21,651 bases of DNA from a virus. Lineage: Duplodnaviria; Heunggongvirae; Uroviricota; Caudoviricetes. The position numbers were made by a program, and so were the translations under genes. The DNA lies in IMG/VR virus record IMGVR_UViG_2896595138_000003; one strand, 5' to 3'. This document shows positions 9,390 through 20,455 of the stretch, piece by piece. Each line of letters opens with the position of its first letter. Within the stretch, counting starts at the first letter, position 1. The notes beneath the pieces were generated by a model. The model was not told the origin of the DNA, did no database searches, and saw nothing but the letters and a program-made list of their open reading frames with translations.

Positions 9390-10439
9390 GTAAGCGCCCG
9401 AGAAGTACGTAGCGTAAGGATTATTTTACAGACGAGAAGTTCCAGGGCAGCAGTTCATGCACTTGGTTCGACGGCCAGTCATTGAGCTTCTCGATCACTT
9501 CGCGCAACCAGTCCTCCGGCTCCACTTCGTTCTGTTTGCAGGTGACCAGCAGACTGTAGATGATCGCCGCACTTTCTCCTCCCTTGTCTGAGCCGAAAAA
9601 GAGATAATTTTTTCTTCCAACCGCCACCGATCGTAACGCGTTTTCACCGATGTTGTTGTCTATTTCCACCCAGCCGTCACGACAGAACTCGTTCAGCGCA
9701 TTCCAGTGATTCAGGATATAGTCGAACGCCTTCGCCATCTCCGCATGTTTCGACAGCGTTTTCCTCTGCAACTGTATCCAGTCGTACAACGACTGCATCA
9801 ACTGGACGCTTCTGGCTTTTCTGACTGCAAGCCGTTCCTCTGCCGGACTGCCACGTATCTCCGCTTCTATGTCGTATAACTCTGCTATCCGTCTGAGCGC
9901 TTCCTGAGTCATTTCTGTCGGACGGCGCACATCCTCGTCATGGATTTTTCGGCGGGCGTGGGCCAGGCACCCGGCTTCCTTCACCCGGCCCGTTTCGTAC
10001 AGTACGTTATAACCTGCATAGGCATCAGCCTGCAGTACGCCCTGATACTTTGCCAGGTGGAGCTGCGGATGTTCTCCTTTGCGATCTGCCGAATACGCGA
10101 ACCAGACGGCTGCCGGCAGGGATGAACCCGCATTACGATCATCCCTGACGTATACCCACAGACGACCCGTTTTCGTCTTTCCGTTCCCCGGGCCAGTACT
10201 TTCACCGGAGTGTCATCTGCGTGCACCTTTCCTGCCTCCAGAACATAGTCATTCAGCGCTATATACAGAGGACGGAGTTTGTCTGCCATTTCTGATACCC
10301 AGCGCACCATGGTATTACGGCTCAGCTCCACGCCCTGTCGCGCGTATATTTCTGACTGGCGATATAAAGGGATATGTTCCATATATTTGCTGACCAGGAT
10401 CCGTGCAAGTAACCCTGCACTGGCATAACCGCGTTCGAT
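9390..10439 (-). mobile_element. IS66-family element, right-end fragment (terminal GTAAGCG-type repeat plus 3' part of tnpC), cut by IS600 copy A
   Basis: Terminal sequence GTAAGCGCCCGAGAAGTACGTAGCGTAAG at 9391-9419 adjoins the tnpC stop; IS66-family ends characteristically begin GTAAGCG. Confidence 0.7.
9421..10439 (-). pseudogene. IS66-family transposase TnpC, 5'-truncated by IS600 and frameshifted (GGG to GG near 10180)
   Basis: Contains [10 protein letters not shown] and LPWN-type TnpC motifs; frames of ORFs 9421..9984 and 9981..10577 join if one G is restored. Confidence 0.8.
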
Positions 10440-10482
10440 TGAGGTGTACTGGCAATAGCGGACACTACCATTTGTTCTTTTT

Positions 10483-11300
10483 TTAAGCAGCCATCTGATG
10501 ATATTTTTCCCTGAAGGCTGCCGGGGAGATATTCCCCAGACGAGAGTGACGACGCTGACGATTGTAGAAAATCTCAATGTATTCCCGTATTACTGAGATG
10601 GCTTCATCCCGGTTATTAAAACGATAGTGGCTCAGGCTCTCATTTTTCAGCGTTCCCCAGAAGCTTTCCATCGGAGCGTTGTCGTAACAGTTACCTTTAC
10701 ACGACATTGATGTTTTCAGACCAAACTGCTCCTGTATGACCGGTAATCGTATGCGCAGTACTGTGAACCTCGATCAGAGTGGTGGATTAGCCCGGCAGGT
10801 GGGCGCTGGCTCCTGAGCGCCATAAACAGGGCTTTACCTGTCAGCTCTTTTGTCATGCGCTCTCCCATGGCGTAGCCGACAATTTCGCACGTATAAACAT
10901 CTTTGATGCCAGCGAGGTACAACCATCCCTCCTGTGTGGCAACATACGTCAGGTCCGCCACCCAGACCTGATTTGGTGCTGTAGGAGCGAACGTCTGGTT
11001 CAGCAGATTTGGCGCAACTGGCAGATTGTGGTTCGGGTTCGTAGTCGCTCTGAACTTGCGTTTCTGCTTACAGCGTAGCCTTAGCTCCTTACGAAGACGT
11101 GCCAGTCGGTCACGACCAACGATGATGCCATTCTCTGCCAGCTCCGTCTGGAGCCGCCGGGTTCCATATGTTTCGCGAGTGCGGATATGTGCCACCTTAA
11201 TCTCCAGTTTTAGCCGCTCATCACTTTGTTTTCTGTCTGAGGGTTCATGCTGTACCCGGTTGTAATAACCGCTCCTGGATACACCAAATACCTGACACAT
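10483..11300 (-). pseudogene. IS600 OrfB transposase, frameshifted (1-bp deletion CCC to CC near 10740)
   Basis: Direct comparison with intact copies B and C: TGACCCGG there versus TGACCGG here. Confidence 0.8.
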
Positions 11301-11335
11301 CGCTTCAATGGGAAATTGTTGTCGCCATTGTTCGA

Positions 11336-11638
11336 TTAACGCGTATTTTTCAGCGACTCCTGTGCAAAATACGCTGTTGCTTTTTTTAATATATCTCGCT
11401 CAAGGCGAGCTTCATTTAACGCCTTACGCAGTTGCAGAATTTCAGATTCCAGTTCAGCCACCGTGCGGGAACCAGGAGTACCGAGCCCTTTTCTGGCGGC
11501 GGTAACCCATTGTCCTAAAGTGCCTTCAGGAAGGGATAATCGGGAAGCGCCTTCACTGATCGAAAGTTGATTTTCAAGAACCGTTCTGACAGCTTCGGCT
11601 TTGAACTCTTTAGAGTAACGTTGGGTTTTTCTGCTCAT
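11336..11638 (-). CDS. IS600 OrfA (IS3-family helix-turn-helix protein), 100 aa
   Basis: MSRKTQRYSKEFKAEAVRTV...; identical in copies A and C, one substitution in copy B. Confidence 0.85.
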   Translation of the reverse strand: MSRKTQRYSKEFKAEAVRTVLENQLSISEGASRLSLPEGTLGQWVTAARKGLGTPGSRTVAELESEILQLRKALNEARLERDILKKATAYFAQESLKNTR

Positions 11639-11858
11639 TATTAGCTCCTTCTGATGCCATTCTATTTCAGGAAGGAGTGTCCGTTAAACTCAGGCTACCT
11701 CAGGTCTTCCGACGATTCTGTCATTGTTCATTAAGCAAAAGTTTCCATGCTGTTTGTGCTTATTCTAAGCAACCGGGCAGCATCATACGGGGCAATTATG
11801 GCCGCATTACCATACATGCAACTGTACATAGCTGATTACCTGGCTGACACTGAAGTGG

Positions 11859-12453
11859 TCAACAAAAACTGGCCACCGAGTTAGAGTTTTTCCAGTATCG
11901 ATTTTCCGATTCGTTTAGGGGTAACCCACCGTTATATTCGTGCGGTCTTAGTGCGCTGTAATATCCAACGATATAGTCCGTTATGGCGTGAGCTGCCTCG
12001 CTGAAGCTTACGTAACCCACCACCGGCATCCATTCGTTCTTCAGACTCCTGAAGAAGCGTTCCATTGGGCTGTTATCCCAGCAGTTTCCGCGCCGGCTCA
12101 TACTCTGTCTGATTCTGGTATCGCCACAATAACTGCCGGAACTGCCTTTCAAGGTAGTTAGGGATAGCAACATGTTCATGACCACCACGTTTATACCGGT
12201 GAGTCGGCTGCTGACAGCTGACCAGCCCCAGCTCTTTCATGAGCCTGCCAGCAAGCCAGCGTCCCATCTGGTAGCCTCTCCGGGTTGCCATTGTGGCGAT
12301 GCTTCTTGCTCCGGCCGAACCGTGGCTGATGCCATGTAGCTCAAGTACCTGACTGCGTAATACAGCCCGTCTGCCGTCTGGTTTTTCAGGACGGTTTTTC
12401 CAGTATCTGTAGCTGCTGCGATGAACCCCGAACACATGGCAGAGTGTGACCAC
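11859..12453 (-). pseudogene. IS911 OrfB transposase with in-frame internal deletion plus a frameshift
   Basis: Protein jumps from NYLERQF directly to RQLLWRY (deletion between two RQF repeats, removing the catalytic core), then changes frame before [15 protein letters not shown]. Confidence 0.75.
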
Positions 12454-12479
12454 AGGATAATGCGCTCTGAGTTTCCCGA

Positions 12480-18984: not shown

Positions 18985-19067
18985 AACAGTTCCGTAATAA
19001 ATATCCGGTTTCATTCTTATATGCCAGCAATGGCAGGGGTTCGCTCAACCTTAATTAAGGAGAAAAA

Positions 19068-19194
19068 CATGATTACCAGTTATGAAGCCACTGTTGTAAC
19101 TACTGATGACATTGTTCACGAGGTTAATCTGGAAGGAAAGCGTATTGGCTACGTGATTAAGACAGAAAATAAAGAAACCCCATTCACTGTGTGA
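19068..19194 (+). CDS. Small ORF (41 aa) whose stop codon is formed by the first bases of IS600 copy C; probably 3'-truncated
   Basis: AAGGAGAAAAAC then ATG; the TGA at 19192-19194 is the IS600 terminus TGAGG. Confidence 0.3.
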
Positions 19195-19234
19195 GGTGTA
19201 CTGGCAATAGCGGACACTACCATTTGTTCTTTTT

Positions 19235-20053
19235 TTAAGCAGCCATCTGATGATATTTTTCCCTGAAGGCTGCCGGGGAGATATTCCCCAGACGAGAGTG
19301 ACGACGCTGACGATTGTAGAAAATCTCAATGTATTCCCGTATTACTGAGATGGCTTCATCCCGGTTATTAAAACGATAGTGGCTCAGGCTCTCATTTTTC
19401 AGCGTTCCCCAGAAGCTTTCCATCGGAGCGTTGTCGTAACAGTTACCTTTACGCGACATTGATGTTTTCAGACCAAACTGCTCCTGTATGACCCGGTAAT
19501 CGTATGCGCAGTACTGTGAACCTCGATCAGAGTGGTGGATTAGCCCGGCAGGTGGGCGCTGGCTCCTGAGCGCCATAAACAGGGCTTTACCTGTCAGCTC
19601 TTTTGTCATGCGCTCTCCCATGGCGTAGCCGACAATTTCGCACGTATAAACATCTTTGATGCCAGCGAGGTACAACCATCCCTCCTGTGTGGCAACATAC
19701 GTCAGGTCCGCCACCCAGACCTGATTTGGTGCTGTAGGAGCGAACGTCTGGTTCAGCAGATTTGGCGCAACTGGCAGATTGTGGTTCGGGTTCGTAGTCG
19801 CTCTGAACTTGCGTTTCTGCTTACAGCGTAGCCTTAGCTCCTTACGAAGACGTGCCAGTCGGTCACGACCAACGATGATGCCATTCTCTGCCAGCTCCGT
19901 CTGGAGCCGCCGGGTTCCATATGTTTCGCGAGTGCGGATATGTGCCACCTTAATCTCCAGTTTTAGCCGCTCATCACTTTGTTTTCTGTCTGAGGGTTCA
20001 TGCTGTACCCAGTTGTAATAACCGCTCCTGGATACACCAAATACCTGACACAT
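19235..20053 (-). CDS. IS600 OrfB transposase, 272 aa
   Basis: Intact; differs from copy B at one residue (AMGERMTKE versus AMGARMTKE). Confidence 0.9.
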   Translation of the reverse strand: MCQVFGVSRSGYYNWVQHEPSDRKQSDERLKLEIKVAHIRTRETYGTRRLQTELAENGIIVGRDRLARLRKELRLRCKQKRKFRATTNPNHNLPVAPNLLNQTFAPTAPNQVWVADLTYVATQEGWLYLAGIKDVYTCEIVGYAMGERMTKELTGKALFMALRSQRPPAGLIHHSDRGSQYCAYDYRVIQEQFGLKTSMSRKGNCYDNAPMESFWGTLKNESLSHYRFNNRDEAISVIREYIEIFYNRQRRHSRLGNISPAAFREKYHQMAA

Positions 20054-20088
20054 CGCTTCAATGGGAAATTGTTGTCGCCATTGTTCGA

Positions 20089-20391
20089 TTAACGCGTATT
20101 TTTCAGCGACTCCTGTGCAAAATACGCTGTTGCTTTTTTTAATATATCTCGCTCAAGGCGAGCTTCATTTAACGCCTTACGCAGTTGCAGAATTTCAGAT
20201 TCCAGTTCAGCCACCGTGCGGGAACCAGGAGTACCGAGCCCTTTTCTGGCGGCGGTAACCCATTGTCCTAAAGTGCCTTCAGGAAGGGATAATCGGGAAG
20301 CGCCTTCACTGATCGAAAGTTGATTTTCAAGAACCGTTCTGACAGCTTCGGCTTTGAACTCTTTAGAGTAACGTTGGGTTTTTCTGCTCAT
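20089..20391 (-). CDS. IS600 OrfA, 100 aa
   Basis: Identical to copy A OrfA. Confidence 0.9.
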   Translation of the reverse strand: MSRKTQRYSKEFKAEAVRTVLENQLSISEGASRLSLPEGTLGQWVTAARKGLGTPGSRTVAELESEILQLRKALNEARLERDILKKATAYFAQESLKNTR

Positions 20392-20455
20392 TATTAGCTC
20401 CTTCTGATGCCATTCTATTTCAGGAAGGAGTGTCCGTTAAACTCAGGCTACCTCA

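Follow-up and report, generated by a model that had tools for sequence, protein, structure and literature searches.

IS-mediated rearrangements in Shigella and their relatives

The comparison between S. flexneri 5b 8401 and S. flexneri 2a 301 brought to light an inversion attributed to IS600 (PMC1550401), and IS–IS events have been reported on pINV (PMC5629016). Furthermore, those passages of PMC9397093 that cite Kusumoto et al. 2011 report that in STEC an IS-excision enhancer (IEE) promotes the deletion of regions flanking IS3-family elements.

The locus described here lies in a window of 21,651 nucleotides (the whole stretch of DNA analysed) and resembles the S. flexneri 5b case insofar as a segment lies between two inverted copies of one IS, matching duplications are missing and recombination between the IS copies is considered responsible. 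Unlike that case, which was inferred from a genome-scale dot plot, the present inversion is small (4.4 kb), is located inside a prophage remnant and is documented to the base pair by a split ACC duplication. With the IS-bounded losses on pINV and in metabolic genes of Shigella the window shares the families involved (IS600, IS911, ISSfl3 and ISSfl4), the coincidence of the loss with IS ends and the existence of sister lineages having different deletions; it differs in that the losses affect a prophage located in the chromosome, at the Rac attachment site, with no phenotype implied. As to the IEE deletions, those described in the above passages and those found here both have the very end of an IS3-family element, IS600 included, as their starting point, but in the window the IS is retained, not excised, and the resemblance concerns the product only. 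The comparisons presented below make it very probable that the four IS elements of the window lacking target duplications represent secondary rearrangements, namely one inversion and three deletions, and not primary insertions.

The prophage remnant at the ttcA/intR site

The window comprises nearly all that is left of a lambdoid prophage, now degraded, which occupies the ttcA/intR (Rac) site in a chromosome of Shigella (GCA_002950375.1, CP026845.1), the source species being probably S. boydii. It maps to CP026845.1 with ttcA, dbpA and zntB as right neighbours and sitDCBA, uspF, ompN and ydbK as left neighbours. The features relevant to the rearrangements are collected in Table 1.

Table 1. 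Features between the ISSfl3 fragment and the right end of the window
Feature	Position	Strand	Remarks
ISSfl3, tnpC-proximal (right) end	9390..10439	-	starts with the terminal inverted repeat (9390) and includes the 3' part of tnpC
IS600 copy A	10440-11702	-	1263 bp; flanks GAT / GGT
ydaT last 32 nt and ydaU start (prophage replication region)	11703..11850	-	148 bp
IS911 remnant	11851-12855	-	both terminal repeats; flanks CAC / TTC; between ydaU' and holin 3' end
Lysis block	12856..13859	+	holin last 45 nt, rrrD lysozyme gene, Rz-type lysis gene
ISSfl4/ISEc20 (IS110 family), copy 2	13860..15310	-	simple insertion separating the lysis and DedA genes
DedA-family membrane protein gene and hypothetical gene fragment	15311..16115	-	stops at the former ISSfl3 insertion point
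Second ISSfl3, 30-bp terminal fragment	16116..16145	+	GTAAGCGCCCCGAGAAGTACGTAGCGTAAG
IS600 copy B	16146-17409	+	1264 bp; flanks AAG / GTG
Early-left arm	17410..19191	+	Rha-type regulator (frameshifted), dicB, DUF1482 gene, racC cut at codon 41
IS600 copy C	19192-20455	-	1264 bp; flanks GTG / ACA
intR, Rac-type integrase gene	20456..21651	+	first 14 codons missing; chromosomal ttcA next downstream

The closest relatives are Rac of E. coli K-12 and the ttcA-site prophages of enteroinvasive E. coli (EIEC) VL40 and O121 201805972, which have in common with the window the ttcA-intR integration site, an integrase gene of 97-99.8% DNA identity and the early-left gene order Rha/dicB/racC, recE, xisR, intR. 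The highest of these values is that of VL40 intR (99.8%, L007 15067-16262), while the early-left arm is 99.7% identical to L027/L028 4617-6399 and to L012 from 8341 on. Unlike these relatives, the window contains seven IS elements or fragments thereof as well as a single inverted block, and is devoid of xis, recE, the immunity region, the late regulators and the head genes.

The IS elements and their flanks

The boundaries and flanks of the IS600 copies were read straight off the sequence, and repeat finding and BLAST gave confirmation. Their ends (TGAGGTAGCC... and ...CACCTCA) are of the TG...CA type with imperfect terminal inverted repeats, and the copies share 99.2-99.8% identity with nine IS600 copies annotated in RefSeq. 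Copies B and C display the arrangement of orfA (100 aa) and orfB (272 aa) with a -1 frameshift; in copy A, orfB is split by the lack of one base in a run of C, a homopolymer-located 1-bp gap that may be an assembly error. Copy C lies between racC' and 'intR in all six sister assemblies; its terminus provides the stop codon of the truncated racC and, as indicated by translation comparison, 17 IS600-derived codons are fused in frame to the 5'-truncated intR (ORF 20407-21651).

The IS911 remnant, which begins at 11851 with the terminal repeat TGAAGTGGTCAACAAAAACTGGCC and closes at 12855 with the other one, the reverse complement of TGAAGTGGCACACTGAATTTGGCC, has undergone a 245-bp internal deletion in orfB between 9-bp repeats GAACTGCCT when compared to RefSeq-annotated IS911, and is otherwise 99.3-99.4% identical to the annotated IS911 of L003 (14276-14571, 14809-15525).

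The ISSfl3 piece terminated by copy A inside tnpC shows 99.7% identity to the ISSfl3 annotated on EIEC pINV (L001 5659-6001 and 7265-7977), and its terminal sequence at 9390 matches the IRR and not the IRL end. The 30-bp fragment abutting copy B corresponds to the IRR end of L001 and departs from the IRL end after base 11. Thus, copy A does abut the interior of an IS66 tnpC and copy B a separate 30-bp IS66 terminal fragment, as the initial annotation had proposed, and both pieces represent the same, tnpC-proximal end of the element, which is recognizable as ISSfl3 by the GTAAGCG... terminal repeat and by tnpC. The outer 8-bp flanks of the two pieces, both of which are fragments only, are different. 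The junctions between tnpC interior and copy A (J1) and between the 30-bp ISSfl3 end and copy B (J6) are not reciprocal; as the two pieces stem from one and the same end, these junctions call for at least one additional event.

Direct reading also bears out the flanking triplets given in Table 1 and the claim that none of these elements has a target-site duplication: 3-bp duplications are found in none of the three IS600 copies, no two IS600 flanks within the window make up such a duplication, whether paired directly or inversely, and none is present at the IS911 remnant (CAC vs TTC). Unrelated flanks are expected to lack a 3-bp match in 63/64 of the cases by chance, so that the informative comparison is that with simple insertions. 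Were IS600 and IS911 often to insert without generating a duplication, the missing duplications would say nothing about rearrangements; indeed, among ten IS600 copies from E. coli loci used for comparison four have none, and the same applies to the IS911 of L003. This reading is nevertheless scarcely credible: perfect 3-bp duplications flank the other six of the ten (chance 1/64 each), comparator copies lacking them are also found at truncated genes (e.g., the recE fragments in L007 and L002), the reconstructed insertion in ydaT described below has its 3-bp duplication and relatives demonstrably do not have the flanks of A, B or C next to each other. The earlier contention that the fragments on either side of each IS600 were probably not originally contiguous holds, for the IS911 remnant as well as for the three copies, and in no relative compared were the same flanks found contiguous with a 3-bp duplication. 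The missing duplications of the window are instead to be ascribed to later rearrangement, the ACC of one ancestral IS600 insertion having been split.

An inverted block bounded by IS600 copies A and B

The segment 11703-16145 (4,443 bp) is bounded by two IS600 in inverted orientation. Comparison with L002 (E. coli FDAARGOS_943), L003 and VL40 (represented by L007 and L022) indicates a reversed orientation for the lysis cassette and the ydaT/ydaU fragment but not for the Rha-int and tail-fibre arms. Indeed, the 148-bp ydaT/ydaU fragment, inverted relative to the Rha-int arm, is 100% identical in reverse orientation to L007 5716-5863 and to L027/L028 1177-1324, whereas the lysis block (98.4-99.2% identical to L003 12001-13005, L002 2170-1166 and L022 4809-5795) is inverted relative to the int arm and has an orientation opposite to that of L002 and VL40. 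The DedA segment is 99.3% identical to L003 13009-13816 and L002 1162-355, and the element separating it from the lysis block, annotated as ISEc20/ISSfl4 in the matching records, has flanks that are contiguous in L003 (at 13005 and 13009) and in L002.

The IRR of copy A adjoins ISSfl3 tnpC (GAT) and its IRL adjoins the inverted ydaT/ydaU fragment (GGT, i.e., ACC in the IS orientation); the IRL of copy B adjoins the 30-bp ISSfl3 fragment (AAG) and its IRR adjoins the region upstream of Rha (GTG). In L002 the flanks of copy B are 11.6 kb apart and in opposite orientation. In the sister genomes L012, L014 and L016, on the other hand, the IRR of copy B adjoins ydaT (ACC), being directly followed by ACCCGCCGCCGCTG. 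The flank of A's IRL ends at L007 5863 (L027/L028 1324) and that of the sister B's IRR starts at L007 5861 (L027/L028 1322), so that on the uninterrupted ydaT of these three references the two flanks overlap by exactly 3 bp, ACC. This overlap argues that a single IS600 insertion was split by inversion of the segment between inverted IS600 copies. When 11703-16145 is flipped in silico and L012 6201-8340 is restored, monotonic collinearity with L002, L007 and L028 is obtained.

The search for reciprocal junctions suggested earlier was thus rewarded for one junction, the partner of A's IRL being B's IRR in sister genomes; a search of 5,426 E. coli genomes and 72,556 plasmids for six predicted reciprocal junctions turned up none of them, and neither the pre-inversion arrangement nor the two ACC junctions together occur in any of the genomes compared. 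The ACC junctions being carried by different sister lineages, the inversion is an event that we infer. Furthermore, the three window copies differ by private single changes only, and hence offer no chimeric polymorphism pattern by which a crossover could be confirmed.

The same structure could have arisen in one step if the IS600 in the ISSfl3 end had attacked ydaT on the same chromosome, yielding a second, inverted IS600, an inverted intervening block and a split 3-bp duplication, with neither a separate insertion nor homologous recombination. The final structure is that expected from a replicative intramolecular inversion, whose sequence product is the same as that of insertion plus recombination: two nearly identical inverted copies, each having one old flank and one flank with the target triplet inverted. 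IS3-family elements such as IS911, IS2 and IS3 transpose by a copy-out/paste-in mechanism via a circular intermediate. This route, as is generally known, yields simple insertions and not replicative inversions; moreover, J1 and J6, which represent the old flanks, are non-contiguous, so that the one-step model likewise needs extra events. We consider such an origin improbable and favor insertion followed by recombination between inverted copies.

Three deletions at IS ends

Once the inversion is undone, the flank pairs of copy C and of the IS911 remnant retain their ancestral order and orientation. The flanks of copy C are present in a single genome, EIEC O121 (L029), 4,155 bp apart, in like orientation and with 100% and 98% identity, and are 4,444 bp apart in L005; copy C marks a deletion of ~4.2 kb extending from racC codon 41 to intR codon 14 and including recE, gam and xis. 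The flanks of the IS911 remnant are 10,039 bp apart in EIEC VL40, and this element marks a deletion of ~10 kb whose two ends lie within the holin gene and within ydaU. Finally, L012, L014 and L016 still have 2,140 bp (ydaT', cro, cI, ydfA) adjacent to copy B that the window and L013 lack, the deletion endpoint coinciding exactly with B's IRR terminus; as judged from the sequences compared, this loss is specific to the lineage of the window genome and CP026877.1.

The initial annotation had invoked recombination between IS copies for all these junctions. For the inversion this explanation is the favored one, but the deletions are equally explicable by adjacent deletion directed by an IS end, effected by the transposase alone or with a factor of the IS-excision-enhancer type. 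That all three arose in the latter way and not by recombination between direct copies is a serious possibility, to which we would give somewhat less than even chances. Each deletion begins exactly at an intact IS terminus and has a far end lacking microhomology; further deletions from exact IS600, IS911 or ISSfl4 ends are found in the sister genomes L012 (window 8095-13699) and L014 (window 11324-11849 and 12993-13856); and IEE is reported, in the passages cited above, to promote deletion next to IS3-family elements including IS600 (PMC9397093). Against this, recombination between direct copies would leave an exactly identical product, a second nearby copy is plausible given the frequency of IS600 elsewhere in this prophage arm (L002, L005, L006, L007, L027, L028), and the IS911 remnant, having a defective orfB, would require a transposase in trans. 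The three deletions would thus be due to either recombination between directly oriented copies or IS-end-directed adjacent deletion.

An inverted block and missing duplications could also be simulated by misjoining of the 1.26-kb IS600 repeats. The assembly contains many homopolymer indels (fragmented sit genes, the Rha frameshift, 1-bp differences among IS copies), which indicate imperfect long-read polishing; such errors, however, create no junctions. The window junctions recur in independent assemblies, including LPTQ01000165.1 and Logan contigs: J1, J2, J6, J7, J8 and J9 are also present in CP026877.1, and J6, J8 and J9 in CP026846.1 and PSSR01000001.1. Copy C lies with both its flanks within a single draft contig (AFGE01000031.1), and short-read contigs end at the same junctions. 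An artefactual origin is therefore extremely unlikely.

Proposed history of the locus

The events may be ordered as follows. An IS600 would have inserted near the 3' end of ydaT, producing a normal 3-bp ACC duplication, and another IS600 would have come to lie within an ISSfl3 next to the DedA/lysis cassette, 30 bp from the tnpC-proximal terminus of that element, both being steps that we regard as established. The inverted IS600 pair would then have recombined, flipping the 4,443-bp block and generating the hybrids A and B, each with one half of the ACC duplication; here the structure is established and homologous recombination of the RecA type is the presumed agent. Subsequently, the 2,140 bp starting from B's IRR terminus would have been lost in the lineage of the window and CP026877.1, a step established by comparison with the sister genomes. 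At copy C and at the IS911 remnant, ~4.2 kb and ~10 kb, respectively, have been lost, presumably through direct-copy recombination or through transposase- or IEE-type deletion from the IS end.

Inversions and deletions mediated by IS elements are well documented in Shigella, so that the present finding, while correct, is an ordinary one; its net outcome is a prophage without immunity, excision, recombination, late-regulation and head genes.

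Setting of the remnant

By exact-protein look-up the window was placed at ~665.9-687.5 kb of chromosome CP026845.1 (4.93 Mb; GCA_002950375.1), with sitDCBA, uspF, ompN and ydbK on its left and ttcA, dbpA, zntB, dgcM and smrA on its right. This neighbourhood is the Rac prophage attachment region, and the window is essentially the entire remnant of one lambdoid prophage. At window 189-230 only 42 bp are found, followed by the sit operon; EIEC VL40 has ~2.5 kb with an ipaH effector gene between the matching flanks (L022 30130-32595), and in EIEC O121 (L003) an ipaH gene likewise lies just beyond the tail-fibre (DUF4376) gene. 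The window's copy of the prophage is thus devoid of the ipaH cargo.

The comparison made use of intact or near-intact relatives, namely EIEC VL40 (loci L007 and L022, same ttcA site), EIEC O121 201805972 (L003, L029), E. coli FDAARGOS_943 (L002) and the Rac prophage of E. coli 2003-3014 (L005), of sister Shigella assemblies retrieved via junction-specific proteins (CP026846.1, L012; CP026877.1, L013; PSSR01000001.1, L014; AFGE01000031.1, L015; LPTQ01000165.1, L016) and of two further-removed lineages sharing the prophage DNA at 99.7% identity (CP044191.1, L027; AKNC01000063.1, L028).

IS elements without target duplications

IS elements and related features of the window, and extent of excision-module loss in three lineages
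Feature	Position or genome	Strand	Description	Basis
IS600 copy A	10440-11702	minus	1263 bp; plus-strand flanks GAT/GGT	repeat finding and direct reading
IS600 copy B	16146-17409	plus	1264 bp; plus-strand flanks AAG/GTG	repeat finding and direct reading
IS600 copy C	19192-20455	minus	1264 bp; plus-strand flanks GTG/ACA	repeat finding and direct reading
IS911	11851-12855	minus	both terminal repeats kept; flanks CAC/TTC	
ISSfl3 tnpC piece	9390-10439		adjoins IRR of copy A	
ISSfl3 terminal fragment	16116-16145		30 bp; adjoins IRL of copy B	
ISSfl4/ISEc20 copy 1	3845-5295		inverted relative to copy 2	
ISSfl4/ISEc20 copy 2	13860-15310		inverted relative to copy 1	
racC, truncated	19069-19194		41 codons	
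IS600-intR fusion ORF	20407-21651		414 aa	
Excision-module loss	window lineage		racC codon 41 to intR codon 14	
Excision-module loss	AKNC01000063.1 (L028)		downstream of racC to last 492 bp of intR	
Excision-module loss	CP044191.1 (L027)		downstream of racC into abgT	

The initial annotation had reported that the three IS600 copies and the IS911 remnant lack the 3-bp target duplication, and direct reading, which gives the very triplets listed there for the IS600 copies, bears this out: none is present at A, B, C or IS911, nor does direct or inverted pairing of the window's flanks produce one. As a base rate, six of ten IS600 copies from the E. coli loci used as comparators have a perfect 3-bp duplication, the remaining four being located at truncated genes. 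Equally correct is the proximity of copies A and B to separate pieces of an IS66-family element, which is ISSfl3; the piece beside A, which meets the IS600 in the interior of tnpC, is 99.7% identical to the ISSfl3 annotated on an EIEC pINV plasmid (L001).

That the junctions are assembly artefacts is excluded, since the same ones recur in independent assemblies. Compared with its sister CP026877.1, the CP026845.1 assembly displays almost only 1-bp homopolymer indels (window 10740, 15220, 16004, 18376 and others), and sitA, sitB and sitC, located on its left side, outside the window, are fragmented (L033 10819-14264) but intact in CP026877.1. Given these homopolymer indels, the 1-bp defects seen in IS600 A and elsewhere among the genes cannot be relied on; long-read sequencing errors are probably behind the 1-bp gap in orfB of IS600 A, the ISSfl4 transposase ORF of 306 aa (not 398) and the Rha frameshift (214 vs 281 aa).

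Inversion between copies A and B

Taken as simple inversion pairs by the window's triplets alone, neither A/B nor B/C matches, and the relation between A and B is visible only via the sister genomes that keep ydaT beside B. Between IS600 A and IS911 lie 148 bp (11703-11850) that correspond, at 100% identity and in reversed orientation, to the ydaT 3′ end and ydaU 5′ end of L007, L027 and L028; read in IS orientation, the junction at the left terminal repeat (IRL) of A is ...GTCGGAAGACC followed by IRL. In L012, L014 and L016, an IS600 having the IRL junction of B (30-bp ISSfl3 fragment, AAG) continues at its right terminal repeat (IRR) with ACCCGCCGCCGCTG... and on into ydaT, cro, cI and ydfA, the uninterrupted ydaT reading ...GTCGGAAGACCCGCCGCCGCTG... 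On L007 the flank of A ends at 5863 and the sister flank of B starts at 5861 (1324 and 1322, respectively, on L027/L028), the overlap being exactly 3 bp, ACC. This overlap indicates one IS600 insertion with a normal duplication, whose two ends now reside on two different inverted copies, and a duplication split in this way is what an inversion between two IS600 elements characteristically leaves behind.

The orientation of the blocks agrees with the inversion revealed by the split duplication. Indeed, with L002 and VL40 as references, reversal with respect to the Rha-int arm affects the lysis cassette (12856-13859), the DedA region (15311-16115) and the ydaT/ydaU fragment, and spares the tail-fibre arm (231-3480). 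Furthermore, an ancestor rebuilt in silico, with 11703-16145 flipped and the 2,140 bp of the sister genome restored, yields a monotonic, one-strand alignment with L002, L007 and L028. The product of the inversion is demonstrated.

IS3-family elements transpose by copy-out/paste-in, a mechanism from which we infer that the inversion would have occurred through homologous recombination between two independently inserted IS600 copies. An identical structure would result from a transpositional inversion within one molecule in a single step, which is considered unlikely. The three IS600 copies display no crossover pattern, all their differences being private single changes and hence uninformative. 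The initial interpretation of the junctions as products of IS-mediated inversions or deletions is correct and can be refined to one inversion (A/B) and three deletions, homologous recombination being the likely route of the inversion.

The ISSfl4/ISEc20 inverted pair (IS110 family) is near-identical save homopolymer indels. When L002 and L003 are taken for comparison, copy 2 proves to be cleanly inserted between the genes for Rz-type lysis and DedA, indicating that this pair has not recombined, though potentially able to invert the 8.5 kb between its copies.

Deletions at B, C and IS911

A segment of 2,140 bp (L012 6201-8340: ydaT', cro-like, cI-like, ydfA and two small ORFs) is absent from the window and from CP026877.1; the deletion starts exactly at the IS600 terminus and homology resumes at 17410. 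Since this segment carries the ACC half-site, its presence is the ancestral state, and the loss beside the IRR of B is a later deletion.

Both junctions of copy C are common to all six sister assemblies. On its left, racC breaks off in codon 41 and takes its stop codon from the terminal TGA of IS600 C; on its right, intR sets in at codon 14, having lost its first 14 codons and its xis partner. A BLAST extension (19192-20481 vs L001) that suggested a match of the right flank to ISSfl3 tnpC was of low identity; the flank is intR at 99.8%. Reading outward from the IRL end of C, 17 IS600-derived codons open the fusion ORF in frame with intR, its exact sequence being found in at least three assemblies and the same junction in six. 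The junction-specific peptide of the truncated racC, used as a marker, retrieved 23 contigs from related genomes. EIEC O121 (L029) has both flanks of C, equally oriented and separated by 4,155 bp, with 100% and 98% identity, and in the Rac prophage of 2003-3014 (L005) the separation is 4,444 bp. The DNA lost at C would have included the remainder of racC as well as recE, gam (or recT) and xisR.

The flanks of IS911 fall in ydaU (L007 5716) and at a point 45 nt before the holin gene end (L022 4809, L003 12001), positions separated by 10,039 bp in VL40; undoing the inversion puts them in the ancestral order and orientation, so that IS911 stands where the late-regulatory and replication region was lost. 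The spacings at C and at IS911 thus confirm that these flanks were not originally contiguous. IS911 is itself missing 245 bp between 9-bp repeats GAACTGCCT (window 12139-12147), which points to slippage or illegitimate recombination; as this loss inactivates orfB, any later activity of the IS911 ends would need transposase in trans. One example of a later event at an IS911 end is the adjoining 526-bp deletion in PSSR01000001.1.

The three deletions could have resulted from recombination between two direct copies or from adjacent deletion directed by an IS end, the products being indistinguishable. One member of the latter class is the IEE-type process reported in STEC for elements of the IS3 family, IS600 among them (PMC9397093). 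The sister lineages have additional deletions, which start exactly at IS600, IS911 or ISSfl4 ends.

ISSfl3 fragments and predicted reciprocal junctions

Both ISSfl3 pieces represent the tnpC-proximal end, GTAAGCGCCCCGAGAAGTACG... agreeing with the IRR end of the complete ISSfl3 in L001, whose IRL end reads GTAAGCGCCCCATCAGCG... The two fragments are accordingly not the opposite ends of a single element that the inversion pulled apart; their 8-bp outer flanks, GCTGATTC and GCAAAACC (9382-9389 and 16108-16115), also differ, with no match in either orientation. The pINV ISSfl3 is likewise without an 8-bp duplication, indicating that the ISSfl3 copies too went through secondary rearrangements. Two pieces of the same end imply a pre-inversion structure with two outward-facing ISSfl3 right ends and one IS600 between them, which in turn requires at least one further IS600-IS600 event involving two ISSfl3 copies. 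The predicted partner of the junction between ISSfl3 tnpC and IS600 A is an IS600 IRL (...CTCAGGCTACCTCA) followed by GATCGGTTTAGGGGGAAGTGG, and that of the junction between the 30-bp ISSfl3 end and IS600 B an IS600 IRR followed by AAGGATTATTTTACAGACGAG.

Twelve 80-nt probes (six real and six predicted reciprocal junctions) found no match spanning the whole probe in 5,426 E. coli genomes and 72,556 plasmids, the matches being of 50-66 nt with the IS end dominant. Queries of 12.6, 4.2 and 3.9 kb did not detect the window's arrangement in the 5,426 complete E. coli genomes (no genome covering ≥80%), and the plasmid collection gave IS matches only. The 10 kb adjoining the window on its left contain no further IS600.

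Erosion in sister lineages

In CP026846.1 window 8095-13699 is replaced by a single IS600, CP026877.1 lacks 11824-14287 and PSSR01000001.1 lacks both 11324-11849 and 12993-13856. The sister-lineage deletions that start at IS ends show that the region kept eroding from IS termini, and the prophage remnant is eroding differently in each lineage. L027 and L028 (locus ~6684-7947) both retain racC intact, with a plus-strand IS600 downstream of it. The loss of the excision/recombination module, independent and with IS600 boundaries in at least three Shigella lineages, could reflect selection locking in the sit iron/manganese transporter cargo next to attR, as opposed to neutral decay; such selection is rather unlikely but, were it at work, the IS600-intR fusion ORF could be a by-product.

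Implications

IS600 and IS911 are two of five IS that have undergone expansion in every Shigella species. An IS600-associated inversion has been reported between S. flexneri 5b and 2a (PMC1550401) and pINV has likewise been reshaped by IS-IS events (PMC5629016). The kind of event described here is therefore already well known, IS600/IS911 expansion and IS-mediated rearrangement being established elements of Shigella genome decay, and no new principle is added, the value of the case lying mainly in annotation and genome interpretation. It provides a worked example, at base-pair level, in which a missing target duplication leads to a specific inversion (the split ACC) and to specific deletions, sister assemblies having sufficed to trace the missing duplications. 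The region is to be read as a single prophage minus its immunity, excision and morphogenesis functions, and not as a patchwork of several phages.
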